64,000 bases of DNA, from assembly GCA_022787405.1 (NCBI GenBank), contig JALFXR010000046.1, positions 2,365 to 66,364 of the forward strand, written 5' to 3'. The DNA is from Bacillota bacterium (lineage in GTDB: Bacteria > Bacillota > Clostridia > Peptostreptococcales > Anaerovoracaceae). This document shows, piece after piece, positions 4,350 through 29,438 of the stretch. Made by a program: the position numbers and the translations under genes. Under the pieces are notes generated by a model. The model ran no database searches. It saw only the letters and a program-made list of their open reading frames with translations, and was not told where the DNA came from. The first letter of the stretch is position 1. Each line of letters starts with the position of its first letter.

Positions 4350-5282
4350 CTACAGTGCCCCCGGTATCTTTTCGCTGTCCAGTATCTCTGAAAGAACTCT
4401 TCTTTCATCCTTTTCCTCTGCCCTTGCCTTACTGCTCAGCCGAACGCGGTGGCAGCAGACATGAAGAAATACGGTTCGTATATCGGCAGGTGTAACAAAG
4501 TCTCTTCCTTCCATATATGCGGCTGCTCTTGCCATCCTGCTGAGAGCCAGCGTGCCTCTCGGACTGATTCCCAGTGAAATCATTTCGTCCTCCCTTGTCC
4601 TTCGACAGAGTCCTGTCATGTATGCCATCACTTCTTCGGATATATGTACGCTGCCTGCCTCTTCCTGCATTTTCAGTATATCCTCAATGCCGCAGACTTT
4701 TTCTGCCTTTTCAAGAGGGTTTGTTTTCTGTCTGTCCCTCACCATGTCAAGCTCGCTTTCAAAGTCAGGGTATCCCATGGATATTTTGATAAGAAAGCGG
4801 TCAAGCTGGGCATGAGGAAGTCTCTGGGTTCCTGCACCGCCCTCGGGATTCTGTGTTGCGATTACCATAAAAGGTCTAGGCAGAGGATGGCTCTTACCGT
4901 CTACGGTGGCCTGCTTTTCTTCCATAACCTCAAGGAGTGCAGACTGGGTCTTGCTTGAGGTGCGGTTTATCTCGTCTGCAAGAAAGATATTGCAAAAAGC
5001 CGCTCCTTTCTCATATCGGAACCGACCGCTGTTTTTGTCATACATGGTAAAGCCGGTAATGTCCGATGGAACCACATCGGGTGTAAACTGTACACGCTTG
5101 TAGTCCAGTCCAAGGACCTTGCTGAAGGCAAGGGCCAGTGTGGTCTTACCCACGCCGGGCACATCCTCGATCAGCACATGGCCTTCCGACAGGAGCGCCA
5201 TGAGAACATTTCTTATGACTTCATCCTTTCCTTTTACTACAGCGCCTATTTCATCAAGAATTCTGTTTATCATATCTACCAT
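4350..5282 (-). CDS. moxR: MoxR-family AAA+ ATPase
   Basis: 310-aa ORF. Walker A is DVPGVGKTTLA, Walker B is FLADEINR, and the sensor region VIATQNPEGGAGTQRLPHAQLDRF is typical of MoxR. Confidence 0.9.
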   Translation of the reverse strand: MVDMINRILDEIGAVVKGKDEVIRNVLMALLSEGHVLIEDVPGVGKTTLALAFSKVLGLDYKRVQFTPDVVPSDITGFTMYDKNSGRFRYEKGAAFCNIFLADEINRTSSKTQSALLEVMEEKQATVDGKSHPLPRPFMVIATQNPEGGAGTQRLPHAQLDRFLIKISMGYPDFESELDMVRDRQKTNPLEKAEKVCGIEDILKMQEEAGSVHISEEVMAYMTGLCRRTREDEMISLGISPRGTLALSRMARAAAYMEGRDFVTPADIRTVFLHVCCHRVRLSSKARAEEKDERRVLSEILDSEKIPGAL

Positions 5283-6697
5283 TCCTTTCCGTAATTCTTC
5301 AGTTTTCCGTAATTCATGCCCATGGCCTTGTATCCCCCGATATCCTTGCCGTAGGCAAGGGTAAAGCGCAGCCTTACCACATCACCGTCCTGCACATAGG
5401 CTTTGCTCAGCCCGTAGGAGGAATATATGCCGTTGATGGAATACATCCAGCCGGAGCCCTGAGAAAAATCAAATTCTCCCAGCTCGTCTATGCCGGCGTA
5501 GCTTTCCCTGTCGAAGATGAGACCGTCTTCTTCGATTTTTTCTGCCAGATCTTCCGGTATGCTGAAGCCGCTGAGCATACCTTTCTTTTCCACTGCCGCC
5601 AGGTAAAAGCCGTTCTCGATGGTTCCGGCATGGCGACAGGAAAATCCGTTGCTTTTCAGGAACCTGTCCACCACGGATGCAAGACTCTCTCCGTCTTCTG
5701 CCTTCATGGTCTGCGGCCTGATGAGATAAGGAATTCCCACAGTGCCGGCTTCAAGGCTTATGATTATTTCTCCTGCTCCGGTTCGATACCACAGGGTCCA
5801 TACCCTGGTGACGGTGTACTGATAGACATCTCTTGCAGTCACCTGAATCTTGTTTTCTCCTTCCTTCAGATACACGCTGTAGGTCTGGCGGTCCATTTCG
5901 CCGATATAGTCTGCGGCCTTGCCGTTGCAGGTGACCTCCATGTTGCTGTAGGAAAGAGTTTGCCCCCGATAGTCTGTAAGCCATACATCAAAATTAAGTT
6001 CCTTCTGGTTATATGTGGCTCCGTCCTTCAGGTTTGTCTCGATGACGGGCATCTTTTCGGCAGGGGTTGTGCCTTCCGGTCTCTCGTACTGCACCTTTTT
6101 TATGTAGCTTCGGCGGTTTCCGCTTCCATCGATATAGCTTATCTGAAGGATGGTGGTTCCTTTGGTGCTCAAACTGATTTCAAAGCTTCCGCCGGATGCG
6201 GTAACCCGTGTTTCTTCGCCCGGAGCTGTGATGACCTTTATCTCCTGTATCTTTTCGTCAGGGCCAAGGCCCATTTCCTCAGAAAGCGCATCTTCAGAAA
6301 AAGATTCCTTCGCAAAGGCATCCTCCTCCAGATCATCCTTTAAAATCTCCTGCGGATTTCCTGGCGGTTTTTCGGGCAGATTGTCTGCCGTGCTGTTTTC
6401 TTTTCCTGAAGATGGGTTCTCGGCGGGTTCACTGTCTGCTTTTTCTTCCTTCTCCCGGCTATCTTCTGACTCATCCTCCCCTTTCGCAGCATAATTTTGA
6501 GCAGTGCCGGTTTCAGGCACTTTGTCTATCCATGGATATTCGGGCACAGTTTCTTCCATTTTTTTCACGCCAAAAACAGCACCTGTAATTAGTACAAGCG
6601 CCAGCAGCAGCGAGATATATTTCTTTATGGTTTTCTGTAATCCGGACATTTTTTCCTGCTCTTTCTGGCGTTTTTGGAGTGCTCTCCTGACAGTCAA
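5276..6697 (-). CDS. Membrane-anchored extracellular protein with C-terminal DUF4430 (transcobalamin-like) domain
   Basis: 473-aa ORF with an N-terminal TM segment (ISLLLALVLITGAVFGV) and an acidic Glu/Ser-rich linker. The C-terminal block GSGWMYSINGIYSSYGLSKAYVQDGDVVRLRFTLAYGKDIGG matches the DUF4430 signature. Confidence 0.7.
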   Translation of the reverse strand: MTVRRALQKRQKEQEKMSGLQKTIKKYISLLLALVLITGAVFGVKKMEETVPEYPWIDKVPETGTAQNYAAKGEDESEDSREKEEKADSEPAENPSSGKENSTADNLPEKPPGNPQEILKDDLEEDAFAKESFSEDALSEEMGLGPDEKIQEIKVITAPGEETRVTASGGSFEISLSTKGTTILQISYIDGSGNRRSYIKKVQYERPEGTTPAEKMPVIETNLKDGATYNQKELNFDVWLTDYRGQTLSYSNMEVTCNGKAADYIGEMDRQTYSVYLKEGENKIQVTARDVYQYTVTRVWTLWYRTGAGEIIISLEAGTVGIPYLIRPQTMKAEDGESLASVVDRFLKSNGFSCRHAGTIENGFYLAAVEKKGMLSGFSIPEDLAEKIEEDGLIFDRESYAGIDELGEFDFSQGSGWMYSINGIYSSYGLSKAYVQDGDVVRLRFTLAYGKDIGGYKAMGMNYGKLKNYGKEW

Positions 6698-6750: not shown

Positions 6751-9700
6751 TTATTTCGTCCACGTTCTCACGGCGTATTTACACTGTATAAGCAGAGTCT
6801 GTGCTACAAGGTTTCCATCCTTGTCGTAAATCTGGATACGAGCCTTGTAATAGTACTTGGTTCCCTTCTTGCCTGCAGTATTGATAAAGGACTTTGTTGT
6901 CTTAGTTATCCTTGCCTGATACTTTGAGGCTTTCTTGGTTGAACGATAGTACTTATACTTCACAGTATATCCCATGCTCTTTATTTCTTTTATGGCTGCT
7001 GCCGTGTCATCATCCACGGTCAGAGTAACCTTGATGTTCTTCTTGGAAGTCTTTGATGAGCGTGCTTTCAGGCTCATGTCTGAAACGAGCTCCTTGATTC
7101 TTTCGATGTTTGCTTCTTCATCGTTTACTTCCAGTCCCAGTGCTTCGCCGTCCACCAGTGCAAATGAGCTGAAGTGTTCTGTCTCAAATACGTAGTATGC
7201 AGTATTGCCGATAGTCTTTCTGCTGCCCGGCATCTGATTGAACTTATCTGCACTTTCAATATGCACTGCGGCAACCTTCTTATCGAGAAGCTTTGACGGT
7301 ATTTCAAGAGTTACAGTCACCTTGCCTGCAAACTTTGTGATGGTCTGCGCACCCGATTTCACGGTCAGATCAACTCTTGCAGCAGTATCTCCAAGAAGCT
7401 TCTTTTCGCTGTCGGTTGTATTCTTTTTCTCGATAATGATGGTCAGTTCGCTTCCTCTTGCCTGTGTGAGGGCGTCCTTGAGGGACGCGCTGTCCAGCTT
7501 GACGGTGCCTGCTTCCGTGGATACAGTAAGTGCCACATCCTGGCTCTTTGCAATATCTTTTAAGGTGCTGACATCCACATTCACTGTAACGGAGTTTGCC
7601 TGCTGGCCCTTGACATCCTTTGATACCTGAATGATGATATCATCGGATTTTGCTTCCAGAGCCTGCTTTTTGATTTCCTCAAGGGTATCCTTATCCACGG
7701 TTACGGAAGCGGCTCCTTCGCTGATGACCGGCTCAACTACAGCGGTAGTATCCTTCTTATCGGTGGTCACATTGCTTTCAGGCATCTGCTCTGAGCCTGC
7801 GATAGCGGTCATCTTATATTTTTCGGCAAGCTGATTGTATATCTCTGTATCTGCCACAGTGATGTATTTTTTCTGCTCATCATTCAGCTTGTTATATGCA
7901 TTATAGGCTGCTCTTGCAGCGCTTTCAGAAGAGGTTGACTTTAACGCTGCAAATTTATCCTTTGCATCGTCGATATCGGAGTAGAACTGAATCTGGTTTT
8001 CAGCTGCGGCAAGCTTTTCCACAAGTTTGCTGTCAAGTTTGGCCCGATCCGTACTGCTGAGGAGATTGTACACTTTTCTTACACTTGCCACCTCTTCCTT
8101 ATATTTCTTATATGTGGTGTATGTGATGGCATCTGCCGAAACCATTGTTTCAAGGGCATCTTTGACATAATCCAATTCGGTTTCATAAACCTTTATGGTA
8201 TATTTGGTTCCGGTATATGCTCTTGCTTCAGCTCCCTGATTGTTCATGGACGGCCACGAATATTCGCCGCATCCCACATACAGTGTGTCTCCCGCTTTTA
8301 CAGGAACAATACTTGTTCTTCTGTACAGAGCACTGTCACTGTTATATTTATTCAGGTATGTTCTTACCTGATAGTTCTTATTGGAAGCAGCAGGCGATAC
8401 CATAAGGTTTGCAGAACTGCTTCCCAGAATCAGTCCATAGTTTAAGGTGCTGCTGTCAAAAGACGGCATAAGTTTGCCTTTACTGATGGAAAGTGATTTA
8501 AGGCTGGTGTCTGAATTACCCCATGTTCCTCCCAGATCTTCTCCGAGATTTTGTGAGAACATGATATGGATTTCATCACCATCTTCCAGTTCACCGTTCT
8601 TATAGCTGAACTCGTTAAAGCCGTAGTTTGTGAACCAGTCGTTTAAGGTTCCCATCCAGCCTGAGCCGGATTCTCCGGAAAACTCTCCAAGGCGTTCTTC
8701 CGAATCATTCAGAACGAAGTCGCTTCCGTCTGCATTAACATTTCTCGGTACTTTGATGGATGCGATATAGCTTATGCTGTAATCATCCCAGCTTGAGGCC
8801 ACACCCTGACTTCCTGTAGACCAGTTACAGCCTTTCAGCTGCAGAGCTTTTAGTACAGCAGTCATCATGGTGTCGTTTTCGCAAAGGTCATAATTGCCGT
8901 CTATGAGAGTACCATACCATGCCGGCGCTCCATTGGAACCAGCCGTCTTGAAGGTCTGATTTTCAACAATGATGTGGACCTTTCCTACGACCTTGCCGTA
9001 GTCAGGAAGTGCCACACCTGAAGCCCCGCCGGTTTCCTGTTCATTCTTCTCTTCCTGTGCTTTTGTCTTAACAGCCGCCATAGCAGCGAGGGCATTTCTT
9101 CTGGCTTCGGAGATAGCCTCCACAGTAGCCGCAAGTTCAACTGCACTCAGTCCATCGACATGAGCACTGGCAAGTACCGCCCAGTTTTCATTGCTGTAGT
9201 CTTCCTGTTTATATTTGCTGAACGCTGAATCAACAGCATCCTTTGCTGATTGCTTCGCTTCCTGAAGTTCCTGCGCCACCTGTTCGCGAGTGGCTTCTTC
9301 GTATTCAGTCTTCGACATTGGAGACAACTGAATCTTCATACTTTCAGCTTCTATATTCGGCATTGTGAAATCGATGGAAATCCAAATCTCACTATACTCG
9401 TTATATCCGGTTTTTTCTGCAAGCTCCCAGTTTTCTCCGCCATCAAGAGAGTATTTTACCCAATACTGTCCTTCGTTTTGTGTCACAAGACGCCGCAGCG
9501 TTATCTCGTTTCCTGCATATGCAGTGATAGATCTCAGCTTTGCTATATCCCCACTGTTGCCAGAAGAAACTCCATTGGTTTTCACAGTATCAAAGATTCC
9601 TATGTTTTTTTCCGTTACTTTATTGAACCAAACCCATCCGGCGACATACTTTCCTGTTGCACTGCTAACCACCGCGCTATTATGTGTCCCTTGTACAAGA

Positions 9701-12612
9701 GTACCTTCTTCCACGCTGATTGTTTTTGTCGGCGGTATCTTAATGCTTGCTACCTCGAAAGCAGCATACATCTCGTTTTTCGCAATCTCAACCGATGAGA
9801 ACAGTTTTGTTTTCTCATATTCATTCAGATACCCATAGCCTCTTTGGAAAGTTTCTATCAGCTCCTTATGTGCATAGGTCACTTCCGTGGTTTCATCCGG
9901 CAGATTCTCTAAATATGACCTGATGTTTGAAACGCGAAGCTCATGATTCAGTGCCGTTGCCGACGCTTTTTTCAGTGCGGCATAATCTGTATCAAAGCTG
10001 TTCATCAGCTCTGCATAGGTGAGCCCTTCCTTTTTCTGATTTGTTACGAGAGTATTGTATTTTTCTACGAACCCAGCATAGTTGCTGTCCGTAAAATCAT
10101 AATCATGGTATTGTTCGTAGAAGGCCTTCGCTTCTGCCAGATTGCTCTTTCGGCTTTCTTCAATCAGTGCTGTTTCATCCTCTGCCGCAGTAACGTATAC
10201 TGATGCATATCCTGCAGCACGCATACCGTGATAATCACCTTTTTCAATTACCTCATTATAGCTTTCGTGATAATATGTGTCTTCGTTGGTATCGTAAAGA
10301 GCGATGATATACCAACCCGGTTCTCTGAAAATATATTCTGTTCTGCCGTCTGCATCCGTTACGGAATTAGTCTTCTTCATGATATCGGCAATCTCGGTTT
10401 TATTTTCAGACGGTTCGCTTACAAACAGTGTAAGACCCTCCGCAGACATGACTTCATCCTGATTGGTGAAATATGTGCCTTTTACTGAGCCCGCAATGGT
10501 TGTTTTCTCTCCTACCACAGCTTCTACCGGACTTTTCGTTATGGAAATGGCTCCTATGTAATCTCCCAGAATATTCAGGGTTTTTACTGAAGCATAAGCC
10601 ACAGTTGTGCCGCCGTTATCTGCAGCATATTCATATCTGCCGATTCCATACAGGCACTTTACAACGCGCACGTCTTCACCATTGTGAAGCTGGATGTTAT
10701 TCATGTCGTTTAGCGCATATATCCCTCGGAATTCGTCATTGATGTATACCATAAACCACGAATTGTTCGCATCCTGAACAGCCACCTGGCTATATCCGGT
10801 TGCAGGAGTTATCCATATGCCGTTTGTCTGGAACTGAAGCCCAGCTTTTGTAACCAGGCTGCTTATAGTAGTGCTTCCTGCTTCCAGACCGAACTCTTTC
10901 TTCATATGTATGCCGGTGCCTGTAATCGTTGCTTTTTCAGATAAACTGTAGGCATTATTGATGTACTCGAAAGAAACCGTGATATTTTGGTTGCTAACAA
11001 GCCCATTTACTGCTGCCTTAAATTTTTTTAACGCAGTATCAAAATAGAATACGGTATTGAAATCTTCTTTGCTCCCGCCGATTTTGTTGCCTGGGCTTGT
11101 TTTAATCGTATACTCGCACTTTTCCTTGAACGCATTATATTCAGCCACATAGCTGTCCCACGAATCCGCTGTATATGTACCATTCTGATTATTTCCTAAC
11201 GCTTCCGGACTATATTCTTCGATAAAGATTCTTGCTTCTTCTAAATACGGGAGATAGTGGTTATTGTAATGGTCCTCATAGGTGGATTTTTTCACCATAG
11301 CGGACGCTGCAGCCGAGTCTGTTTTATCAGAAAAAATCCCATCTTTATAAACGGCAACTGCGATTGCCTTTGATAAAGCGTCACACTTTTCCTGCGCAGA
11401 TTTATCAGTTTCAGATACTTCATTTTTTTCAGTAGGTTCACCGTTTTCATACAGGGAATTCAAATAGTCTTGTCCTTCTTTTAATGCTTTCGCATACGGA
11501 GCCCATGTAACTGCTGTTGTCGTATTTTCCGTTACTATATTTTCACCGGAATAGGAAACATCAATTTTACCGATTTTATTGTCGTTAGTCATCCATCTAT
11601 ACCTTGCGTTTAGAACCTCATACAGCTCCGTCGCATTGACCTGCGTGGTCGGGATGAGGTCGGCGATGGCGGCTTCAAGCAATGCAGCCGCAGCATCAAC
11701 TTGATTCTGCTTAACGCCTGCTGCTAATGCACGCGTTCCGCCCTCTCCCGCAGGATAGATGGTATTCACCCTACCCATTGCAGCTTTATACAGTGCCCAG
11801 AAGCTATCTATTCTCCACTCCTGTTTGGTCCTTGAATTATAGGTGTAGAACAACTTCACTGCATTTCGGTCCGCCTTGATGGTCGCGTCGTTCCGCAACC
11901 TGTCGACAAGGTCTGTAATCGTGGTCTTGCCGTTATAGCGGTCAACCGTGTGGTAATATGCAGTGTCCGTTTCAAGCGAAGGTGCATTTTTGAGCACTGC
12001 GTTCAATTTATCAGTGTTAATTATGACAGGTGTAGCTTCAATCAAAAGTGCATAACGCAAATCATTGTTATTTTCATCTGTTCTAATAAAGGCATAATAA
12101 TAAGTTGCATTTTCAGCGGTGACAAATTCTTGAGAACGATACCCTTTTTCCGTTAAGTCGCTTGTTGTGACAGAATATTTTTGAAAATTAGTATCATCAT
12201 ATTTGAAGGCTCCACCAGTTGTTGTTACTTGTACGGCTCCTTTTCCACCAGCAAGTAAGTGATTATGATACAGTGTAATATTACTTCCAGTATCACTAAG
12301 GGCCCGAAACGTTTTACCAGGTATGGAAATAAAATATGTTTTGAGAACCTGAGCATTTGTACCGGTTGTGTCATTGCTACTTGTTTGACAGTTGATAATA
12401 AGATTTTCTGGCGTTGTGATCTCTTTGATACTGTAGCCGTCTGTGACTGTTATTCCTGATATGCCCAGCTTTATCGTGCAATCATACGAATCTGCCGCCC
12501 AGGCATCTTCCAGTCCCCACTGACCGATGCCAAGCCCTGTGAACACCATCATAAATGTCAGCGTCAGCGCCAGTATCTTCTTTATGGAACTGTTTTTCTT
12601 TACTTTTTCCAT
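6751..12612 (-). CDS. Giant secreted surface protein (1953 aa) with DUF4430 and cadherin-like beta-sandwich domains
   Basis: Signal peptide MEKVKKNSSIKKILALTLTFMMVFTGLGIG...AWA. Internal DUF4430-like block GSGWMGTLNDWFTNYGFNEFSYKNGELEDGDEIHIMFSQNLGEDLGG. It is followed by SLKSLSISKGKLMPSFDSSTLNYGLIL...MVSPAA (cadherin-like beta-sandwich pattern). The C-terminal end has YYYKARI Fn3-like repeats. Confidence 0.7.
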   Translation of the reverse strand: MEKVKKNSSIKKILALTLTFMMVFTGLGIGQWGLEDAWAADSYDCTIKLGISGITVTDGYSIKEITTPENLIINCQTSSNDTTGTNAQVLKTYFISIPGKTFRALSDTGSNITLYHNHLLAGGKGAVQVTTTGGAFKYDDTNFQKYSVTTSDLTEKGYRSQEFVTAENATYYYAFIRTDENNNDLRYALLIEATPVIINTDKLNAVLKNAPSLETDTAYYHTVDRYNGKTTITDLVDRLRNDATIKADRNAVKLFYTYNSRTKQEWRIDSFWALYKAAMGRVNTIYPAGEGGTRALAAGVKQNQVDAAAALLEAAIADLIPTTQVNATELYEVLNARYRWMTNDNKIGKIDVSYSGENIVTENTTTAVTWAPYAKALKEGQDYLNSLYENGEPTEKNEVSETDKSAQEKCDALSKAIAVAVYKDGIFSDKTDSAAASAMVKKSTYEDHYNNHYLPYLEEARIFIEEYSPEALGNNQNGTYTADSWDSYVAEYNAFKEKCEYTIKTSPGNKIGGSKEDFNTVFYFDTALKKFKAAVNGLVSNQNITVSFEYINNAYSLSEKATITGTGIHMKKEFGLEAGSTTISSLVTKAGLQFQTNGIWITPATGYSQVAVQDANNSWFMVYINDEFRGIYALNDMNNIQLHNGEDVRVVKCLYGIGRYEYAADNGGTTVAYASVKTLNILGDYIGAISITKSPVEAVVGEKTTIAGSVKGTYFTNQDEVMSAEGLTLFVSEPSENKTEIADIMKKTNSVTDADGRTEYIFREPGWYIIALYDTNEDTYYHESYNEVIEKGDYHGMRAAGYASVYVTAAEDETALIEESRKSNLAEAKAFYEQYHDYDFTDSNYAGFVEKYNTLVTNQKKEGLTYAELMNSFDTDYAALKKASATALNHELRVSNIRSYLENLPDETTEVTYAHKELIETFQRGYGYLNEYEKTKLFSSVEIAKNEMYAAFEVASIKIPPTKTISVEEGTLVQGTHNSAVVSSATGKYVAGWVWFNKVTEKNIGIFDTVKTNGVSSGNSGDIAKLRSITAYAGNEITLRRLVTQNEGQYWVKYSLDGGENWELAEKTGYNEYSEIWISIDFTMPNIEAESMKIQLSPMSKTEYEEATREQVAQELQEAKQSAKDAVDSAFSKYKQEDYSNENWAVLASAHVDGLSAVELAATVEAISEARRNALAAMAAVKTKAQEEKNEQETGGASGVALPDYGKVVGKVHIIVENQTFKTAGSNGAPAWYGTLIDGNYDLCENDTMMTAVLKALQLKGCNWSTGSQGVASSWDDYSISYIASIKVPRNVNADGSDFVLNDSEERLGEFSGESGSGWMGTLNDWFTNYGFNEFSYKNGELEDGDEIHIMFSQNLGEDLGGTWGNSDTSLKSLSISKGKLMPSFDSSTLNYGLILGSSSANLMVSPAASNKNYQVRTYLNKYNSDSALYRRTSIVPVKAGDTLYVGCGEYSWPSMNNQGAEARAYTGTKYTIKVYETELDYVKDALETMVSADAITYTTYKKYKEEVASVRKVYNLLSSTDRAKLDSKLVEKLAAAENQIQFYSDIDDAKDKFAALKSTSSESAARAAYNAYNKLNDEQKKYITVADTEIYNQLAEKYKMTAIAGSEQMPESNVTTDKKDTTAVVEPVISEGAASVTVDKDTLEEIKKQALEAKSDDIIIQVSKDVKGQQANSVTVNVDVSTLKDIAKSQDVALTVSTEAGTVKLDSASLKDALTQARGSELTIIIEKKNTTDSEKKLLGDTAARVDLTVKSGAQTITKFAGKVTVTLEIPSKLLDKKVAAVHIESADKFNQMPGSRKTIGNTAYYVFETEHFSSFALVDGEALGLEVNDEEANIERIKELVSDMSLKARSSKTSKKNIKVTLTVDDDTAAAIKEIKSMGYTVKYKYYRSTKKASKYQARITKTTKSFINTAGKKGTKYYYKARIQIYDKDGNLVAQTLLIQCKYAVRTWTK

Positions 12613-12730: not shown

Positions 12731-13123
12731 CTATGTCCCTCCGCTGTTCTGTTCCATTTCTGCCGCTGCTTCTGCAGCTGCCTTTTCTTCTCTCAGCTGT
12801 CTGCGTCTTTCCGCCTGACGGGCCTTTCTTTCCGCCTTCTTCTGCTCTTTGATGAGATGACTTTCTGCCACCGGTCTTGTGCCTGCCTTCTCCAGCATCC
12901 GGTACCACGGTCCGAAGCGTGCTTTTAAGATCACGTCATATACCAGATCGTCTCTCGTTGGTTCTCTGCCGTTTTCCTCGGTAAAGTCTCTCACAAGCTG
13001 CAGAAGCTCCTCGTCGCTCATGGCCTTGTACGGTTCTCTCAGCTCGTTAAGCAGCTTCTGTTTCTCATGTTCGGTCATGGTCTTGCTTTCTGCAATTTCC
13101 TTTTTTGTCATCTGCTTTGTCAT
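12731..13123 (-). CDS. Small protein with a single homing-endonuclease-associated (HNH_repeat-like) module and a Lys/Arg/Glu-rich tail
   Basis: 130-aa ORF. SDEELLQLVRDFTEENGREPTRDDLVYDVILKARFGPWYRMLEKAG resembles the PF18780-type repeat (..G R.Pt..d......y..rFGsW..AL..AG). A GGGAG RBS lies ~10 nt upstream. Confidence 0.45.
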   Translation of the reverse strand: MTKQMTKKEIAESKTMTEHEKQKLLNELREPYKAMSDEELLQLVRDFTEENGREPTRDDLVYDVILKARFGPWYRMLEKAGTRPVAESHLIKEQKKAERKARQAERRRQLREEKAAAEAAAEMEQNSGGT

Positions 13124-13203
13124 ATATGTAACTCCCGCTGACCTCGGGGGCGGCTTTTTCTTCTATGCACCGCCCCTTTAAGGATGAAAAGTTTTCGAGT
13201 AAT

Positions 13204-13231
13204 AAAAAAACGATGATTTTAAAACCATCGC
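13204..13231 (-). terminator. Intrinsic terminator (expression platform of the proximal riboswitch-like leader)
   Basis: Minus strand reads cgatggttttaaaatcatcg followed by TTTTTTT. It lies ~80 nt upstream of the 130-aa CDS start. Confidence 0.5.
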
Positions 13232-13379
13232 TTTTGTGACATATGAAATACAGGCAGACAGCTTACGCCATCTCCCTTTCTTTCGGCTCCCCGACCCTTT
13301 CTTTATCTTGGTTTCAGGGGTTTGTAGGTCTTCTGACTTTTACATTCAGATGCAATCTTTTCAATTGCACCAGCGCACG

Positions 13380-13600
13380 CATTTCGCCTTCTCTCCGGGC
13401 CATGACAGCCCTTCCAATGACCGGCTTTCGCCGTATGCAGATTACCCTGCACAGAAACGGTACTTTGTAATCACAGCTACTAAGGGAGCGTGCATCTTCG
13501 CCAGTATGCACCTGGCTGCCGCTCCCACGTGTCCAGGAATTTCACCTGATTCCCTTGTTCAGCAAGGAACAAGAATGCGTGTCCGAAGCGTAATCGCATC
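13380..13600 (-). promoter_or_regulatory. Cobalamin-riboswitch-like element, proximal copy of a tandem pair (divergent)
   Basis: Minus strand contains ACAAGGGAATCAGGTGAAATTCCTGGAC (conserved 5' core). An inserted hairpin (GGGAGCG...CGCTCCC) follows, then TAGCTGTGA, GGTCATTGGAAGGGC and a B12-box-like GGCCCGGAGAGAAGGC. The match is less canonical than the other two copies. Confidence 0.4.
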
Positions 13601-13653
13601 TTCGGGTCGCGCATTTGCCACAAAAGCCATTTTCCTATTCAATTATTCATCGA

Positions 13654-13684
13654 AACAAAAATAGACTGCCTTCTGCGGCAGTCC
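13654..13684 (-). terminator. Intrinsic terminator between the two tandem riboswitch-like elements
   Basis: Minus strand reads GGACTGCCgcagaaGGCAGTCtATTTTTGTTT (7-8 bp GC-rich stem plus U tract). Confidence 0.6.
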
Positions 13685-13694
13685 ATGCATTCTC

Positions 13695-13925
13695 GTAATA
13701 TCCCGGCATCCCGGTTCTATTATCGCTCGGTGCCCCTCCGCAAATCCCCGCCGCTCTAGCAAAGGATTCTTCTCTTCGGTTACCCTCACACTGAATGTTT
13801 CTTCTGCCTCAGAAGTGAAATCATTCGAGCCACAACTCGTCTCCCGTCTCGTCGCCATCGGCGCATTACGGTTGCTGGCCAGCCGGGGAATCTCACCCCA
13901 CTTCCGTTAGTTATGCTCATTTCGT
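13695..13925 (-). promoter_or_regulatory. Cobalamin riboswitch, distal copy of the tandem pair
   Basis: Minus strand GGAAGTGGGGTGAGATTCCCCGGCTGGCCAGCAACCGTAA aligns almost base for base with the core of the canonical copy at 15.6 kb (GGAAGCAGGTGAGAATCCTGCACGGTCCCGCCACTGTA). A B12-box-like GAGACGGGAGACGAG lies downstream. Confidence 0.6.
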
Positions 13926-13954
13926 TATATATTCTATTTTTTCTCAGTAATTAA

Positions 13955-13983
13955 ATGCTATCACACCGACTTCATAAAGTCAA
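13955..13983 (-). promoter_or_regulatory. Sigma-A-type promoter for the tandem riboswitch leader
   Basis: Minus strand reads TTGACT, 17-nt spacer, TAGCAT, with an extended -10 TG (gTGaTAGCAT). It lies ~25 nt upstream of the riboswitch core. Confidence 0.45.
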
Positions 13984-14171
13984 CATATTTTACCAAATCA
14001 AGAGGGGTTTTTTTGCTTGTACAATTGCACTGCCTGCTGCTGTGTTTTCCGTCATAAATGCCGCCTCCTTTTCTTTCGCTTTTTTATTGTCAGAATGCAA
14101 AACTCCCGCCTCACATGGGAATGCTTTGATATCTCGCCCTTCCCACCGGCAGGAGTTTTCTTTACTCGCAG

Positions 14172-14485: not shown

Positions 14486-15211
14486 CTATCTGCATATATA
14501 AATCGGTGCTGACTTTTCTCTTGCCTCCCTTGCCAGTGCAAGGTCTGCCTTCATCAGCTCGAAGCTTTCTCCCGGCCGCATAAACGGCTCGATGACCTTG
14601 GCAACCTGTGGAAACAGCATCCTCCTGTCTCCAAAAAACTCGATGACAAACAGCTTATGAGGCGCTGTCCTATAGTCGGGTCTGGCAGCCAGAATCCATG
14701 CCCGGGTCACCTCCGGATTTTTCTCAAAGAAGCTTCTGAGAACTTCCACGATTCCGGGCGGATAGCTTTTTAGTGGTGATAATATCTGTGGCGCTGGGTG
14801 GTCTGTGCGCTGCAGCGTCATTCCTTCCATCTCCCTGTCAATCTCCATGAGCTGGGGTCTTCGCAGTACCAGCGCCTTGCCGAATGGATTAAGCACCACC
14901 CCTGAAAATTCCGCAGGAAGGTCTATGATTATGTGTTTTAAGTCATCAAGGGTCATCACACCTATGTTGTCCCATGGCGTATGTTCTCTTGTCAGCTCGT
15001 ATGGTGATGTAAATGCCGGAAGGAGTATTTCGCCTGCAGAGTTATGTAATGCTGCCACGTTCATGGTATCTCCCTGGTATGGCACGAGAAGCTGCGCATC
15101 CTTCAGTTCTTTAAAAAACCGCCTCTTTCCTTGCTCCGTTGGGTTGTCTCTGAATCTTTCCATGGCCTTCACCAGGTCGAAGCCCTCTGCGAAATTATCG
15201 TCTATTCTCAT
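14486..15211 (-). CDS. SseB-family protein (enhanced serine sensitivity protein B-like, N and C domains)
   Basis: 241-aa ORF. FFKELKDAQLLVPY ... LLPAFTSPYEL ... and a C-terminal half typical of SseB_C. RBS CCGGAGGAAC upstream. Confidence 0.6.
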   Translation of the reverse strand: MRIDDNFAEGFDLVKAMERFRDNPTEQGKRRFFKELKDAQLLVPYQGDTMNVAALHNSAGEILLPAFTSPYELTREHTPWDNIGVMTLDDLKHIIIDLPAEFSGVVLNPFGKALVLRRPQLMEIDREMEGMTLQRTDHPAPQILSPLKSYPPGIVEVLRSFFEKNPEVTRAWILAARPDYRTAPHKLFVIEFFGDRRMLFPQVAKVIEPFMRPGESFELMKADLALAREAREKSAPIYICR

Positions 15212-15420: not shown

Positions 15421-15484
15421 AGCCCGTTTTTACTGCAACAAAAATATTCGCAAGTGCTCCCCGACACAAGGAACTGTCAAACAA

Positions 15485-15690
15485 TTTATGCATGTCTCCT
15501 GACTCAGCGATCAACGCTTTACTCACCTTCCCACACCCATCTTCTATCCTTTTAAATCGGTCAGAGGTGCAGTGGCATACTGAGCAAAACTCCTTCAATA
15601 CAGTGGCGGGACCGTGCAGGATTCTCACCTGCTTCCATCTTAGCTCCGGCCTCGGCTCGCTTCATGCCGCCCGGAGAACATAAATGCCTT
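15485..15690 (-). promoter_or_regulatory. Cobalamin (B12) riboswitch, canonical
   Basis: The minus strand carries all hallmark blocks in order: GGAAGCAGGTGAGAATCCTGCACGGTCCCGCCACTGTA, ATGCCACTG, GGGAAGGTG, and the B12 box AGTCAGGAGACATGC. Confidence 0.85.
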
Positions 15691-15708
15691 CATATGAACT
15701 TCGAACTT

Positions 15709-18735: not shown

Positions 18736-20196
18736 TTATTTCAGTATTTTCCAAGTTCCTTTCTTATTTGAGCCCACCCGTACAAGGTACCCTTTCTCTT
18801 TTAGCTCTTTAATTAGTCGTGCTACCGTAGCTCTTGAACAACCTAATTTCTCCATAAGTTCTGCAGTAGTAATATGTGGATCCAATTGCAAAATTTCTAT
18901 AAGTTTCTGCGACTTGTTATTTATTGTCTCATTTATTGTCTCATTTATTGTCTCATCTGACACCGATACAGTTTCTAATGTCAACACTACCCTTGCAGGG
19001 TCGGATAACTCTTGAATGACGGGCTTCGCAAAGCCGTTTTCTTCCCATGTGCTGTAAATATCGCACAGACCGGAGCCGGAGCGTTCTCCCACATTTATTA
19101 GAGAAAACATATTGAAGATTCTTGCGTTTCGTGTGTCGCTTACCCCTCCTGCTATGGCGTCCTCTATGCTGACTCGAAAGGTTCCCGGATTGGATATGGT
19201 GATTTTGCTAAAGTCTTTATCGATGACAATTCCCTGCCGCCCGTAATAATCGGCGTGAATCAGTGCATTGGCCAATGCCTCTCGGATGGCTGCGTGTATA
19301 GGTGTGTCATCGACTCTCATCATCTGTTCATCCAGCTTGAAAGGTTTTTTCACATCGGCGGTCAGTTTCCCGATGATTCTAAAATAAAAATCAAAGATAT
19401 TGCCGCTCCAGTCTCCGTCACTACAGCATACCCTGTCTGACCAGCGGGTATCCGTAGCCTTCCGCTCTCTGTAGTCAAGGAAGTAATTCGGTAATTCGTC
19501 CATGATCGTGATAAAATCGCCAAAGAACAGAAGTCCTGCAAGGGTCGGATGTAATTCTCCGTCTAAACCTTTCTTTGCTGCACCGATTTTCAGAAGAAAT
19601 TCTTCGTCGCTGAGCTTTGTCCAAATATGGTTTGGCTTACGATTGGAAAACATTCTGCGATAGCCAAGGAGCGCTTCGTGATTCAAATCAGAGAGCCTAA
19701 GAGTTTCCACAACCTTGCTGTCCGCACTTTCTTCCGCTTGGTCGCGAAGCATGGCAAGCACTTCTTCCCTCTTACAACGATAGTCACCTTCTCCATTGCG
19801 TCGATAGCTGCCGGAAAACATATCTTTCCCAATATAGACCGGTCGGCTCTGCCTTGCCGCCCGGGGAACCTCCATGACGATGATTTTTTTCTTATCATAA
19901 TCAACGGTATAAATGTTTTCGTTCAGCAAAATATTCTCGCTTATTTTCTGTGGGTTGTTCAAAGCATTCCAAAGCTCCGAAATCATCTTTTCCGTATTTT
20001 CAACGCCGATTGGTATCAACTTCTTTGTCTGTGCATCTTCTTGCACACCAAGGAGGATGACCCCGCCATCTGTGTTGGCAAACGCCGAATAAGTTTCCCA
20101 CATGCTCTGCGGCACTCCGCCTGTTGCCGTCTTGACCTCTATGTGTCCGCTCTCTTTCTCGGATGATAAAATTCTATGGATGTCCACCATGTACAA
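18736..20196 (-). CDS. AlbA_2 (Schlafen-like) / HATPase_c_4 / C-terminal wHTH protein (often annotated as putative DNA-binding or RecG-like)
   Basis: 486-aa ORF. N-terminal ESGHIEVKTA...FANTDGGVILLGV (AlbA_2). Central REALANALIHADY...ISNPG...NARIFNMF...GSG (HATPase_c_4-like). C-terminal HTH TTAELMEKLGCSRATVARLIKELKEKGYL. Confidence 0.7.
   Translation of the reverse strand: MYMVDIHRILSSEKESGHIEVKTATGGVPQSMWETYSAFANTDGGVILLGVQEDAQTKKLIPIGVENTEKMISELWNALNNPQKISENILLNENIYTVDYDKKKIIVMEVPRAARQSRPVYIGKDMFSGSYRRNGEGDYRCKREEVLAMLRDQAEESADSKVVETLRLSDLNHEALLGYRRMFSNRKPNHIWTKLSDEEFLLKIGAAKKGLDGELHPTLAGLLFFGDFITIMDELPNYFLDYRERKATDTRWSDRVCCSDGDWSGNIFDFYFRIIGKLTADVKKPFKLDEQMMRVDDTPIHAAIREALANALIHADYYGRQGIVIDKDFSKITISNPGTFRVSIEDAIAGGVSDTRNARIFNMFSLINVGERSGSGLCDIYSTWEENGFAKPVIQELSDPARVVLTLETVSVSDETINETINETINNKSQKLIEILQLDPHITTAELMEKLGCSRATVARLIKELKEKGYLVRVGSNKKGTWKILK
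18919..18954 (-). repeat. Perfect 12-bp x 3 in-frame tandem repeat (encodes INET x 3)
   Basis: Plus strand atttattgtctc occurs three times back to back. It translates to ETINETINETIN in the linker before the wHTH of the 486-aa protein. Confidence 0.85.
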
Positions 20197-20271
20197 ATCC
20201 TCTTTTCATCGAAAATGTGTTTTTATTATTATATTATTTTTTCTTCCTAAAATCCATACTAATTTTATGGG

Positions 20272-22617
20272 CTACTCCCGGTCGGCGGATTTGGTGGTCA
20301 TGAGCTGATAGAGCCTTGTGTCTCTTGGGAAATGGTTCTCAAAGGGAACGAGGCTGCTGCCGATTTTGAGCAGGCCATGTCCGGCGTCCACATCGGTGAT
20401 ATAGGATAGCTGGGTGTCGGAAATATCAAGAAGCCCCGCAAGTTCCTCCCGGTTGGTGGCTGCCTGATTCAGCATGATGACAAACTCGGAATTTGAAAGC
20501 ATGGTACGGGCGACGTGAGATTGCAGAAGATCCTCCACGTCCTGCGTGATTCCGGTGCAGAAGGCGCCATACTTTCTGACACGTTTCCAGAGCTTGAACA
20601 AAAACTGTGCGGAGTATTCGTGCATGAACAAAAGGTAGATTTCGTCGATATAGACGAAGGTTTTTCTGCCTTTCTTTCGATTCGCCGTAATGCGGTTGAG
20701 AATGCTGTCTAAAATCACAAGCATGCCTACCGGACGGAGCTGCTCTCCCAGCTCCATGATGTCGTAGCAGATCAGGCGATTTTCCGTATCCACATTGGTC
20801 TGCCGGGCAAAGGTGTTGAGGCTGCCCTTTGTGAACAGCTCTAATTCCAGTGCAAGGGCATGTGCCTCCGGTTCCGGCTGTTTTAGGAGTTCCTCCCGAA
20901 AATCCTGCAAAGTAGGGGGAACGCCCTGATAATTTCCCTGCATATAATACCGATAGACGCTTTCGGTGCAGCGGTCGATGATGGACTGCTGCCCTCTGCT
21001 GAAGGTATGGCCTGCGATAATCTGCTCACACAGCGACTGCAGAAATTGTGATTTTTCGATAATCGGGTTGATCTCCCCGTAGTCCTTTGTCATGTCCATG
21101 GCATTAATATGGTTCGGGCTCGTGGCTGAGATTTCCATGACCTCGCCGCCAAGTGCCCGCACAAGCGGTGCGTACTCCCTTTCCGGATCTATTATCAAAA
21201 TATCCGCATCGGTGGCCAGCATCAGATTGGTGATTTCGCATTTTGCCGCAAAGGACTTGCCGCTGCCGGATACCCCTAAAATAAAGGAATTTCCATTCAG
21301 AAGCTGCCTTCTGTCAGCTAAAATCATATTCTTGCTGACAATATTCTGCCCGTAATAAATGCCTTTCCGGTGGGATATTTCCTGCACCCTGAAAGGCATC
21401 ATAACTGCAAGAGATTCAGTTGTCAGAGTTCTGAATGTATCAATTTTTCGTGTGCCTATAGGAAGCACGGTATTCAGTCCGTCAAGCTGCTGAAACTTAA
21501 GCACTGCAAGCTGGCACAGCCTTTCTCTTCCCATTGTAAGCAGCGCCTTGGTATCCTGGTCAAGCTGCTCCATGGTTTCAGCAGTATGGACAAGGGTCAT
21601 TACCGTCAGCATCATGCGCTGATCACGGTTTGAAATATCGTCAAGAAATTCTCGCAGCTCCGTTCTTTGCATCTCCATATCGTATGGCACCTCTGCCGAA
21701 AAGTTATTATTCGTGTTCTGCCTTCTCTGCCAGTTGGTGATGTTTGTCTCCGCACCAAGGAGCCTTGATTCTATCTCTTTTACTGCTTCCCCTGTGGATA
21801 CCGGAATCACATCCATTGACAGCATCATGTTTTTACACCTGTTGGTCAGTTCGGTTACAAAATCATCCCTGATGAAATTGGCATATTCCTTTAAGAATAT
21901 CACCCGTGCGTAACGCTCTCCCATTTTCACATAGTCTTTTCCGATTTCCAAAGAATCGGGGCAGATGTAATCTTTGAAGCTGTGTCCTTTTTTTCGGTTC
22001 TCGCTGATATTAAAAGCGAAGCTGCTTTCTTCGCCGCTTCTGTAAAAGTCATGCAGAATGCGCAGCCGTTCAACGGCTCCAAGTTCTGTGCATTTGGAAC
22101 CCAGCTTATTCAGATGAATTGAAAGCTCCGCACCAAATCTGTGAAAATATACTCTTGCGTCCTCCACGGATTTCTCTGCAATAGTTACAGTGATGTATTT
22201 TTCCTGTGTAATGGAATTGCCCGCATTTCCCTTGTGAAGCAGCATACGGTTATATTCTTCCCTGTACATATCCAGACTGTCATCTGCTCTGTCAATGAGG
22301 ATTCTGCTCTTGAATTCCGCCGTGTTAAGTTTGCGGTTGAATATGGTTATCTTAGTATCCGCACTGCTATCCAAGGAGTTAAGGAGTCCGCTGTACTTCT
22401 CAAACATAGTTTCCTTGTCTTCTTCCGATGCCACCTGATAGTTTATATCTTCAAAGCGGTATGTTCTGCTGAACTGATTCTTACCTACACAAATTATCCC
22501 GTCGTCATAAACGATTTTTACCGGAATGGTGTCCTGCACGCTCCGAGGCATTTTGATGTATTCTTTTCTTCTTTTCGACTCTGTTTTTCTTATCACTGTG
22601 CGTTTCCTGCCTTTCAT
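20272..22617 (-). CDS. virB4: VirB4-family type IV secretion ATPase
   Basis: 781-aa ORF. Walker A is GVSGSGKSFAAK and Walker B is TFVYIDEIY. The N-terminal MPRSVQDTIPVKIVYDDGI is typical of Gram-positive VirB4/TraE. The true start is probably the internal Met at ~22551. Confidence 0.9.
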   Translation of the reverse strand: MKGRKRTVIRKTESKRRKEYIKMPRSVQDTIPVKIVYDDGIICVGKNQFSRTYRFEDINYQVASEEDKETMFEKYSGLLNSLDSSADTKITIFNRKLNTAEFKSRILIDRADDSLDMYREEYNRMLLHKGNAGNSITQEKYITVTIAEKSVEDARVYFHRFGAELSIHLNKLGSKCTELGAVERLRILHDFYRSGEESSFAFNISENRKKGHSFKDYICPDSLEIGKDYVKMGERYARVIFLKEYANFIRDDFVTELTNRCKNMMLSMDVIPVSTGEAVKEIESRLLGAETNITNWQRRQNTNNNFSAEVPYDMEMQRTELREFLDDISNRDQRMMLTVMTLVHTAETMEQLDQDTKALLTMGRERLCQLAVLKFQQLDGLNTVLPIGTRKIDTFRTLTTESLAVMMPFRVQEISHRKGIYYGQNIVSKNMILADRRQLLNGNSFILGVSGSGKSFAAKCEITNLMLATDADILIIDPEREYAPLVRALGGEVMEISATSPNHINAMDMTKDYGEINPIIEKSQFLQSLCEQIIAGHTFSRGQQSIIDRCTESVYRYYMQGNYQGVPPTLQDFREELLKQPEPEAHALALELELFTKGSLNTFARQTNVDTENRLICYDIMELGEQLRPVGMLVILDSILNRITANRKKGRKTFVYIDEIYLLFMHEYSAQFLFKLWKRVRKYGAFCTGITQDVEDLLQSHVARTMLSNSEFVIMLNQAATNREELAGLLDISDTQLSYITDVDAGHGLLKIGSSLVPFENHFPRDTRLYQLMTTKSADRE

Positions 22618-22933
22618 TTATTAAGCTGTAATATATATTCGTTGTCTTTACCGTAAGCTTCTTCGGTGTCAGAATTTCCGACTTGATGACTGCCCATAAA
22701 AACTTCTCTGCCGGCATTTTGTTATATGTTACAAAACCCAGCAGCGCACATGGCAGCATGCCAAAGATACATGCCCACGATACGGCTCCTGTGCCAAGCC
22801 GATTTCTCAGCAGAAAATATATTCCCACCGATACCCCTATACCCAGACATGAAAAAAGGAACTGCCGCAGTGACAGTCCCCAAAATATGGACTCTTTATA
22901 GTCCCTGATTTCTTTATTCGTTTTTATTTCCAT
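22505..22933 (-). CDS. PrgI-family small T4SS membrane protein
   Basis: 142-aa ORF. MEIKTNKEIRDYKESIFWGLSLRQFLFSCLGIGVSVGIYFLL is the PrgI-family pattern, with two TM helices. Its 3' end overlaps virB4. Confidence 0.7.
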   Translation of the reverse strand: MEIKTNKEIRDYKESIFWGLSLRQFLFSCLGIGVSVGIYFLLRNRLGTGAVSWACIFGMLPCALLGFVTYNKMPAEKFLWAVIKSEILTPKKLTVKTTNIYYSLINERQETHSDKKNRVEKKKRIHQNASERAGHHSGKNRL

Positions 22934-22946
22934 TGTAATGTGCTCC

Positions 22947-23783: not shown

Positions 23784-23874
23784 GTTATCACCTCCTAGTG
23801 TAGTAGTTATAACGGATTGACCTTTTTTCGTGCATAATAAAAAGCCCGGAATATTAATCCGAGCTAGGTAATCA

Positions 23875-26029: not shown

Positions 26030-26197
26030 AATAATATACTACTACGATTATCAAAGAAAATCAATAAAAATTTATTTATTTCTATACATTTTGTACCGTT
26101 TTTGCACATTTTATGCATGTTTGTTCTGAATATCACCATAATCATTCATTTATCATTTTGTTTGTCTTCCCCTAAATACTACTTGTTGTTTCGCTTT

Positions 26198-26569
26198 CTA
26201 TCCTGTAATCATATTCAGGATTTCCTTGGTAAAGGTAATGATCACACCACCGGCAAGGGTCAGAAAACCATTGGCACGCTGCGACGGATCATGGGACTTA
26301 AGAGATAAACCAACCTGCATAACTCCAAGCCCCAGCAATATAATGCCGATGGCTCTGATTAAAGCAAAAATGAAGTCTGATAGGTTATTTACAACTGCTA
26401 ATGGGTCTCCCCCTGCTCCAAATGCCGTCTGGGGGACTGCGGCAGCAATTCCATAGCAGAAATAGAGTACCCATTTAACTTTTTTCAGTGCGATTTTTTC
26501 GCTCATTTTTCCTTTTTTCTCTTTCATTTTCTTAATCCTCCCATTCATTTTTTTCTTCCAGTTCCTCAC
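26198..26569 (-). CDS. Maff2-family (VirB2-like) small membrane protein
   Basis: 123-aa ORF. The hydrophobic hairpin IRAIGIILLGLGVMQVGLSLKSHDPSQRANGFLTLAGGVIITF resembles the Maff2 pattern. It lies immediately downstream of virD4. Confidence 0.6.
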   Translation of the reverse strand: MRNWKKKMNGRIKKMKEKKGKMSEKIALKKVKWVLYFCYGIAAAVPQTAFGAGGDPLAVVNNLSDFIFALIRAIGIILLGLGVMQVGLSLKSHDPSQRANGFLTLAGGVIITFTKEILNMITG

Positions 26570-28522: not shown

Positions 28523-28530
28523 AACCGCAC

Positions 28531-29433: not shown

Positions 29434-29438
29434 CTTTT

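Follow-up and report, generated by a model that had tools for sequence, protein, structure and literature searches.

Two cobalamin-riboswitch-like elements of different sub-classes, each followed by its own terminator, in the leader of a putative surface-protein operon from an Anaerovoracaceae genome

The question raised by positions 13204-13983 of a 64,000-nucleotide (nt) stretch of a Bacillota bacterium genome (Anaerovoracaceae; assembly GCA_022787405.1, contig JALFXR010000046.1; the window, by which we mean this whole stretch) is whether two cobalamin-type riboswitches stand one behind the other ahead of a single operon, as a sequence-only reading had proposed, and whether they are of one kind. 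When the minus strand of 13100-14010 is read, a leader of about 830 nt is found in which a promoter is followed by a first aptamer-like segment (aptamer 1), a terminator (T1), a second aptamer-like segment (element 2), a second terminator (T2) and the first coding sequence. We consider it somewhat better than an even chance, at roughly 55%, that the two segments are independent corrinoid-responsive, transcription-terminating OFF switches placed in series on one transcript. All window features described below lie on the minus strand.

Searched at the Rfam gathering thresholds, the whole window returns a single match, a canonical cobalamin riboswitch at 15472-15698 (103.9 bits). Against the same family, RF00174 (clan CL00101; gathering score 31.5 bits), aptamer 1 scores 26.2 bits over 13817-13956 (E 0.011 in the 64-kb window and 2e-4 in a 1.2-kb region) and element 2 scores 15.5 bits over 13308-13589 (E 0.24 in 1.2 kb), the latter with unaligned insertions of 53 nt and 101 nt. 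The sequence-only reading had staked its proposal on both segments passing the gathering score, and in that formal sense it falls; it had also staked it on the region belonging to no other RNA family, and there only noise-level matches, to STnc410 and SNORD49 (E 2.7 and 5.2), were seen, RF00174 being the sole family that matches either segment in the correct register. In relatives the RF00174 scores are 29.6 bits for aptamer 1 of locus L048 and 18.9-24.7 bits for element 2. Since neither segment reaches the Rfam threshold, the case now rests on comparative evidence.

Relatives were collected in two ways. Species-representative genomes, scanned with the 130-aa protein encoded first in the operon, gave nine loci in metagenome-assembled genomes of uncultured Clostridia and Anaerovoracaceae, and 68 loci in human-gut metagenomes were retrieved by exact match to the 21-mer GTCAGAAGACCTACAAACCCC. 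Element 2 is present end to end in 63 loci, where it begins with GGCTTTTGTGGCAAATGCGCGA, reaches its B12-box-like 21-mer 283-396 nt later and is followed, about 135 nt beyond that 21-mer, by the terminator CGATGGTT..AATCATCGTTTTTTT. Its sequence blocks are nearly invariant among loci, and lengths differ only at hairpin tips, a pattern that marks a structured RNA. Downstream of element 2, the 130-aa gene has homologues in 53 loci and a giant surface protein has them in 42.

Element 2 (13317..13628) resembles a class-I cobalamin riboswitch with insertions, as judged from its RF00174 match and from an alignment of 29 representatives sharing less than 94% identity (alignment A1). Its P1 (GGCUUUUGU with ACAAA..CC) has as 5' half the strand GGCUUUUGUGGC at 13617..13628, a candidate toggling strand. 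Then follow an extra hairpin P0 (13574-13616), P2 (CUUGUUC/GAACAAG, 13554-13573), the P3-J3/4-P4-L4 block GGGAAUCAGGUGAAAUUCCUGG (13531-13554), a P5 that consists of the 7-bp stem GGGAGCG/CGCUCCC with an inner hairpin and that covaries between lineages (13484..13526), P6 with its extension (13333-13477), which reads GUCAUUG...GGAGAGAAGGC where the canonical form is GCCACUG...CGGGAAGGC, and the B12-box-like stretch AAGUCAGAAGACCUACAAACCCC (13317-13339). The P6 extension is about 145 nt long and contains six covarying helices, and the 3' strand of the element is AAGUCAGAAGACCUAC as against the canonical gAGCCAGGAGACCuGC. On alignment A1 the model has 87 pairs, with 98.2% of cells paired and 19 compensatory pairs; control models slid by 1-3 columns reach 35-44% paired and 3-6 compensatory pairs. 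The covariation is located in P4, P5, the P6 extension and the extension hairpins. An alternative GUAG/CUAC pairing offered by RNAalifold in place of P3 was set aside; both pairings are invariant, and P3 was preferred by homology to the canonical fold.

The second core of the sequence-only reading, AAGGGAATCAGGTGAAATTCCTGGAC at 13531-13556 with GGCCCGGAGAGAAGGC further on, is thus found in place, and the marked difference it noted between the two copies is upheld. Its assignment of GGCCCGGAGAGAAGGC to a non-canonical 3' core has to be corrected, as this is the class-I P6-extension motif (cf. CGGGAAGGC); the stretch of the second aptamer that truly corresponds to the B12 box, AAGTCAGAAGACCTACAAACCCC at 13317-13339, had been omitted, and instead of one inserted hairpin there are several (P0, the long P5 and two more within the P6 extension).

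Aptamer 1 (13826..13919) is a compact, class-II-like four-way junction with a core of about 95 nt, supported by its RF00174 match and by covariation among six sequences. It comprises a P1 of 11 bp with a bulged G (UGAGCAUAACU/AGUUGU-G-GCUCG), a J1/3 consisting of an AA bulge, a 2-bp P3 (CG/CG), P4 with a T-loop-type L4 (GGGG-UGAGAUU-CCCC), a short P5/L5 (13874-13884), a short P6 hairpin (CCGU..CGCC-GAU-GGCG..ACGG) and the B12-box-like stretch GAGACGGGAGACGAG; the absence of P2 is what gives it the class-II layout. The first core pointed out by the sequence-only reading, GGAAGTGGGGTGAGATTCCCCGGCTGGCCAGCAACCGTAA, falls inside it at 13866-13906. Complete or near-complete copies are carried by only six loci, the window and L002, L011, L042, L048 and L051. 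On these six the model has 23 pairs, 99.3% of cells paired and 5 compensatory pairs, compared with 32-50% paired and 0-1 compensatory pairs in the slid controls. Compensatory changes occur in P1 (C-G/G-C and G-C/A-U), at the base of P6 (C-G/U-A) and in distal P6 (G-C/C-G and C-G/U-A), and the 3-4 bp distal P6 hairpin covaries through CGCC/GGCG, CGU/ACG, CCUG/CAGG and CCCG/CGGG.

Both elements contain, in the correct order, the P3-P4-P5-P6 four-way junction, J3/4 GGAA and a T-loop-type L4 (GGUGnnAAUCC); among the junction helices P4, P5 and P6 are backed by compensatory changes, and P3 and the P6 base are invariant and therefore uninformative. Where the Rfam consensus of the B12 box is gAGCCAGGAGACCuGCC, aptamer 1 has CGAGACGGGAGACGAG (AAGUCAGGAGACGAG in relatives) and element 2 has AAGUCAGAAGACCUACA; the GAGAC/AAGAC core and its position are retained, with 2-4 deviations. 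It has been described that class I is characterized by a loop-stem-loop P2 and a large P6 extension, and class II by the lack of P2 and a short P6 hairpin (PMC7367189). By that scheme element 2, with P2 between P1 and P3 and a large P6 extension, groups with class I, and aptamer 1, with no P2, a short J1/3 and a P6 closed by a short hairpin, groups with class II. The proposal of a tandem of one class is therefore only partly sustained, as both members have the cobalamin architecture and they belong to different sub-classes, class-II-like and then class-I-like.

Covariance models built from the elements themselves lead back to the same family. A model from 18 element 2 cores, with the variable insertions cut out (R1), found three matches below E = 10, namely itself (79.7 bits), the canonical riboswitch at 15483-15642 (14.8 bits, E 0.05) and aptamer 1 at 13828-13913 (7.4 bits, E 3.6), all in register at P4, the P6 base and the B12 box. 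A model from the six aptamer 1 sequences (R2) matched itself and the canonical riboswitch at 15485-15644 (18.3 bits, E 0.009) and gave no others. The individual scores are weak and the E-values rough, being taken from a short calibration and a search space of 128 kb covering the whole window; the non-self matches below E = 10 were limited to cobalamin-type sites. This bears on the objection that a chance resemblance has been read into an ordinary long 5' untranslated region holding no riboswitch, in keeping with two matches under the Rfam gathering threshold and an E of 0.24 for element 2 even in 1.2 kb. We regard that explanation as already contradicted by the comparative data and scarcely credible, given the end-to-end conservation across relatives with 60-90% protein identity, insertions placed solely at helix tips, the 19 and 5 compensatory pairs, and reciprocal matches confined to cobalamin-type sites.

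With regard to the expression platforms, the presence of an intrinsic terminator of its own behind each cobalamin-type segment is confirmed, and promoter, T1 and T2 were each recovered independently by pattern scan. T1 (13653..13686), the first hairpin and U tract of the sequence-only reading, is AUGGACUGCC-GCAGAA-GGCAGUCUAU followed by UUUUUGUUU; its GC-rich 10-bp stem (13686..13661, -16.2 kcal/mol) runs into UAUUUUUGUUU. Between aptamer 1 and T1 lies a P13-like hairpin, GAAUGAUUUC-A-CUUCUG-AGG-CAGAAG-AAACAUUC (13793..13826, -9.4 kcal/mol), whose 3' side (GAGGCAG) complements the 5' side of T1 (CUGCC) and so provides a candidate antiterminator. The duplex is calculated at -9.7 kcal/mol in the window and at -10.7 to -13.2 kcal/mol in relatives, in which the same arrangement of hairpin, antiterminator and T1 is seen. 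The P13/antiterminator/terminator logic of the metE riboswitch from P. megaterium has been established by mutagenesis (PMC10327014), and the calculated energies of switch 1 fit that experimentally dissected model. Switch 1 would then run from the class-II-like aptamer through the weak P13-like hairpin to T1, with the 3' side of that hairpin pairing to the 5' side of T1 as the antiterminator.

The platform of element 2 appears to be built differently. Its spacer (13241..13316) varies by lineage and leads to GUCACAAAAGC (13230..13240), a candidate antiterminator partner that reaches into the base of T2 and is perfectly complementary to the 5' strand at 13617-13628; within these two strands lie GGCUUUUGUG (13619-13628) and CACAAAAGC (13230-13238). 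T2 (13204..13238), the second hairpin and U7 of the sequence-only reading, is a 13-bp hairpin, CACAAAAGCGAUGGUUUU-AAAAUCAUCG then U7, and lies about 135 nt past the B12 box in nearly all related loci. The duplex between the 5' strand and GUCACAAAAGC is calculated at -17.8 kcal/mol, compared with -7.4 for P1, and T2 goes from -12.3 to -5.7 kcal/mol once the GUCACAAAAGC strand is taken, the pairs beside the U tract being lost. The same helix is predicted by RNAalifold on the alignment, is kept in 29/29 representatives and comes out when the window sequence is folded to minimum free energy. In the liganded state P1 would be locked, GUCACAAAAGC left free and the 13-bp T2 completed, turning expression off; in the unliganded state the P1 5' strand would pair with GUCACAAAAGC over 11-12 bp, stripping the base of T2 and allowing read-through. 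As all three toggle strands are invariant, we can only infer this toggling.

Three other pairings were considered for the second platform. An antiterminator within the P5 insertion (CCAUCGC complementing GCGAUGG in L007) was rejected, being missing from the window and most loci. A pairing of platform GGAGCC with GGCUCC of the P6 extension was also rejected; the hairpin concerned covaries internally (GGGCU/GGCCC versus GAGCU/GGCUC) while GGAGCC stays fixed. RNAalifold further pairs the 5' strand of P5 with platform UUCCAUUCCG over 9 bp in the majority clade, and this helix is wobble-rich and weak in the window.

Whether the two switches would act on the same transcript depends on the promoter. 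The sigma-70-type promoter TTGACT-17-TAGCAT named by the sequence-only reading, with a TG-extended -10, was found at 13955..13983, and its core GTTGA...TGTGATA is kept among the relatives that have aptamer 1. The claim that it serves both segments agrees with our scan, which found no strong promoter between them, and no open reading frame (ORF) lies there either; the locus has what a tandem with multiple expression platforms consists of: two full aptamers, each with its own terminator, with no ORF and, by pattern scan, no promoter between. The sole ORF of the interval between aptamer 1 and element 2, one of 71 aa at 13643-13858, overlaps most of the switch 1 platform; it was rejected as a leader peptide, its start lying inside the aptamer 1 P6 hairpin. 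A contrary arrangement would have two transcription units, with T1 ending a short riboswitch RNA and element 2 starting from a weak promoter of its own, so that the two are not in series. For it speak locus L006, in which element 2 stands directly behind its own promoter, the perfect TATAAT that relatives with a repeat leader (described below) have about 25 nt upstream of element 2 and the AT-rich spacer from T1 to element 2 in the window. That spacer is just about 25 nt long and the scan found no promoter-like site of at least 9/12 from 13653 to 13628, and a stand-alone riboswitch and terminator without cargo would be unusual; we therefore hold separate units to be quite improbable.

If both switches are on one transcript, RNA polymerase would have to pass both terminators for the operon to be expressed, and so the operon would be shut off at sufficient intracellular corrinoid. 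The response would be sharpened if the two sensors recognize the same ligand and would amount to NOR logic if they recognize different corrinoid forms. That they differ in corrinoid selectivity is a reasonable guess from the difference in class. Aptamer 1 itself is not assignable from sequence to class IIa or IIb, that is, to a methylcobalamin/hydroxocobalamin or an adenosylcobalamin (AdoCbl) preference. Corrinoid as the ligand, OFF polarity and co-transcription from the one promoter are likewise our reading of this organization.

Several observations weigh against two corrinoid switches in series. Both segments stay below the curated Rfam threshold, and the element 2 match taken by itself is not significant. 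The B12 boxes, GAAGACCUAC and GGGAGACGAG, depart from the consensus GGAGACCUGC. In element 2, P1, P2, P3 and the P6 base never vary, so covariation is uninformative there, and this invariance is partly forced, as the 68 metagenome loci were fetched by the exact 21-mer. The aptamer 1 model is backed by just six sequences. The L5-L13 kissing loop has been described as "common to all" cobalamin riboswitch classes (PMC7367189, PMC10327014); the P5 terminal loop of element 2 is different in every lineage (GUGCAUA in the window, GAGA in L001, GUAAUA in L048, AAAC in L059), which makes a conserved kissing loop impossible, and a conserved L5 was accordingly rejected. For aptamer 1, in which such a loop should stabilise P13, an exhaustive scan of the window for complements of L5 found at most 5 nt. 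A weak internal promoter may lie between T1 and element 2. Finally, the first regulated gene has no known B12 link, and the connection between DUF4430 (see below) and corrinoids comes via family annotation alone.

Some of these observations would be expected if element 2 derives from a cobalamin riboswitch and is no longer a corrinoid sensor, having turned to another ligand or a protein, or into a processing or stability element, with B12 control left to aptamer 1 or, in the relatives with a repeat leader, to nothing. Its very low RF00174 scores (15.5-24.7 bits), the lack of a kissing loop, the extra P0, the large insertions and a B12 box changed from GG to GA and from UGC to UAC all point that way, and variant subgroups with a changed ligand are known in other riboswitch classes (PMC6847200). 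Set against this, none of the 29 representatives departs from J3/4 GGGAA, the L4 T-loop GGUGAnAAUCC, the motifs of the P6 extension or the GAAGACC core, as expected if the ancestral pocket is under selection, and the regulated operon bears DUF4430 modules before which element 2 is, in most loci, the only metabolite-type sensor. We judge the loss of corrinoid sensing by element 2 rather unlikely.

It is also conceivable that the fault lies with the first segment, element 2 being the sole working corrinoid sensor while aptamer 1 is decaying or ligand-independent here and T1 acts as a constitutive partial attenuator. The census of upstream modules bears on this. Among the 65 loci whose contig includes the 5' end of element 2, aptamer 1 and T1 occur in eight, a repeat leader ORF with a terminator in 47, and 10 have another module or are too short; what stays the same in the leaders of about 65 loci is element 2, and aptamer 1 is found in 8/55 of the classifiable ones. 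The window copy of aptamer 1, moreover, is without the covarying L5 complement of its relatives, and its platform is strongly diverged from theirs. As to the L5 complement, L042 and L048 have one of 7 nt (GGCGAGC opposite GCUCGCU), L011 has GGCAAGC opposite GCUUGCU, a compensatory change relative to these two, and in L051 and L002 an 11-nt complement to the T1 loop is seen. The core in the window is nonetheless intact, with all invariant positions present, 99.3% of cells paired and the P1 changes compensated, the P13-like hairpin, antiterminator complementarity and T1 are all there, and the promoter is conserved. A degenerate first gate therefore seems to us likewise rather unlikely, and we retain the reading of two functional OFF switches in series.

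The replacement of aptamer 1 by a repeat leader in about 85% of classifiable loci indicates that the tandem is one among several exchangeable modular solutions and not a fixed unit. The repeat-leader module is composed of a promoter, a leader ORF (MVNGYKNVNNWHDSC-[NQPT]n...) and its own terminator (for example, L004:2170-2350, L007:2260-2410, L024 and L053). The ORF contains tetranucleotide repeats, (CCAA)3-14, (CAAG)11-12 or (CAAT)9, the copy number of which varies between metagenomes and sets its frame, so that it stops 37-49 nt before the terminator stem in 29 loci and about 21 nt before it in one, and runs 25-82 nt into or through the terminator in 11. The module, which is outside the window, resembles phase-variable attenuation that is coupled to translation and stands in series with element 2. 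Leaders of relatives also carry insertions of about 300 nt with AAGTTGGACTTTTGAC / AAAAGTCCAA motifs after T2 (L002:930-1260, L006:2670-2910) and of about 130-260 nt (AATGGAGTTGTCCCTGTTTTCGGAGAAAACAG...) immediately before element 2 (L010, L012, L019, L024 and L026); to judge from their repeat-like sequence at two fixed leader positions, these may be miniature mobile elements.

The arrangement can be compared with several known systems. Tandem AdoCbl riboswitches with separate terminators have been catalogued as 26 doublets, described as "pseudo-cooperative" (PMC9481103), so that the rarity claimed for such tandems holds and the configuration as such is already on record. As in those doublets (Sudarsan et al., 2006; PMC9481103), there are here two complete aptamers per leader, each with its own terminator, and a steeper OFF response is expected; unlike them, which were found with standard models, both aptamers here are sub-threshold and of different sub-classes. 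The class-II riboswitch for aquocobalamin is among the classes never found in tandem (PMC9481103). In the B. clausii metE leader, S-adenosylmethionine (SAM-I) and AdoCbl riboswitches likewise form two terminator-bearing OFF switches in series and act as a NOR gate, in which either ligand alone shuts off expression (Sudarsan et al., 2006; PMC9481103). There the ligands are chemically unrelated and the logic was demonstrated by experiment, whereas both sensors here belong to the cobalamin superfamily and the difference in ligand is hypothetical.

Taken singly, the elements also depart from their classes. With the class-I riboswitches of T. tengcongensis and P. megaterium metE, element 2 shares P1, a P2 between P1 and P3, the P3-P6 junction, J3/4 GGGAA, L4 GGUGAnAAUCC, a B12-box-like 3' strand and a downstream terminator, and its P6 extension has GUCAUUG...GAGAAGGC where theirs has GCCACUG...GGGAAGGC. 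It differs in having P0 before P2, the B12 box AGUCAGAAGACCUAC and scores of 15-25 bits against the 31.5 required, in having as P5 a lineage-variable helix of 20-90 nt, without an L5-L13 kissing loop, in place of a 2-bp stem with a UCCCG loop, and in a proposed read-out through the 5' strand of P1 and not through P13. With the class-II riboswitches of clan CL00101 (env8 hydroxocobalamin/Cbl-IIa, Cbl-IIb and the AdoCbl variant) aptamer 1 shares the absence of P2, the bulged AA in J1/3, a short hairpin as the sole P6 extension and a core of about 95 nt; it differs in that RF00174 outscores the clan variant models on it and in having no kissing-loop partner in this window. B. subtilis yvrC (PMC7367189) is a precedent for mixing peripheral elements of different classes, and such hybrids can bind several cobalamin forms; yvrC retains the L5-L13 kissing loop and a small P6 extension, whereas in element 2 the P6 extension is large and a conserved L5 is missing. 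Judged on sequence, then, the tandem arrangement is known and the heterotypic pairing, class-II-like then class-I-like, is new, as is the long variable P5 of element 2 without a conserved kissing loop. Its switching by a 5' strand toggle, as modelled here, may also be new.

The first gene behind the leader encodes an HNH_repeat (PF18780) protein of 130 aa (12731..13123, ATG at 13123). It is followed by a protein of 1953 aa (6751-12612) with no Pfam domain above threshold, a DUF4430 protein of 473 aa (5276-6697; 34.3 bits against a cutoff of 23.8) and genes for a MoxR-type AAA+ protein, a DUF58 protein and a transglutaminase-like protein, and the same gene order is found behind element 2 in relatives. 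The 1953-aa product is taken as a putative surface protein from the hydrophobic, signal-peptide-like N-terminus of its translation. One of its segments is homologous to the 473-aa DUF4430 module (pairwise E 5e-10; sub-threshold against Pfam) and stands beside a weak Cadherin-like match. In vertebrate transcobalamins DUF4430 makes up the C-terminal domain (PMC4350170). It is plausible that both DUF4430 modules bind corrinoids, and the 1953-aa and DUF4430 proteins of the operon probably do so at the cell surface. No classical btu, cob or cbi genes were found in the downstream operon, a comparison of the DUF4430 module with solved structures gave no informative sequence match, and a literature search on bacterial DUF4430 and B12 turned up next to nothing.

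Between T2 and the ribosome-binding site a GC-rich hairpin, GGGGCGG-N16-CCGCCCC (13147..13176), is conserved in all related loci together with the CUUUUCAUCCUUA motif upstream of it, and it could be a stability element, a processing element or a third control point. Upstream of the leader, the canonical riboswitch, the third cobalamin-type element within 2.5 kb on the same strand, precedes an ORF of 241 aa (14486-15211) with the Pfam domains SseB and SseB_C, an SseB-family protein being an unusual riboswitch cargo with no obvious B12 link. Downstream of this ORF a long hairpin, AAAACUCCUGCC...GGCGGGAGUUUU then GCAUUCUG (14099-14159), which the terminator scan missed on account of its large loop, is likely the terminator that separates the SseB-family transcript from the promoter at 13983. 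A run of genes at 18736-30119, adjacent to the riboswitch locus, which we take to be of conjugation type (a VirB4-like ATPase of 781 aa, a VirD4/TraG-like coupling protein of 600 aa, and membrane and lytic-domain proteins), raises the possibility that the B12-regulated operon borders or rides on a mobile element.

A more far-reaching picture joins these parts. Element 2 would represent a kissing-loop-independent architecture in which a long P5 in cis replaces L5-L13 and the P1 5' strand toggles to a partner about 380 nt downstream; the element and aptamer 1 together would make up a NOR gate whose two inputs are different corrinoid forms, in control of giant DUF4430 surface proteins that capture corrinoids in human-gut Clostridia and form a family not recognised before, and sister lineages would have swapped the first input for a phase-variable tetranucleotide-repeat attenuator. 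We offer this combination as a speculative one that is unlikely to hold in every part.

Standard annotation would record only the canonical riboswitch at 15472-15698 and miss the other two, so cobalamin-type regulation in gut Clostridia is likely under-counted. Corrinoid binding by element 2, if it takes place without a kissing loop, would call for a wider definition of the class than the accepted one, and the toggling of this element, if true, would be a natural example of a long-distance switch through the P1 5' strand. Corrinoids in the gut are chemically diverse, and how their different forms are integrated by one cell might be learnt from the heterotypic tandem. With the regulated genes, a candidate surface apparatus for corrinoid scavenging comes into view in Gram-positive gut bacteria; its role would be comparable to that of the surface B12-capture proteins of Bacteroides.

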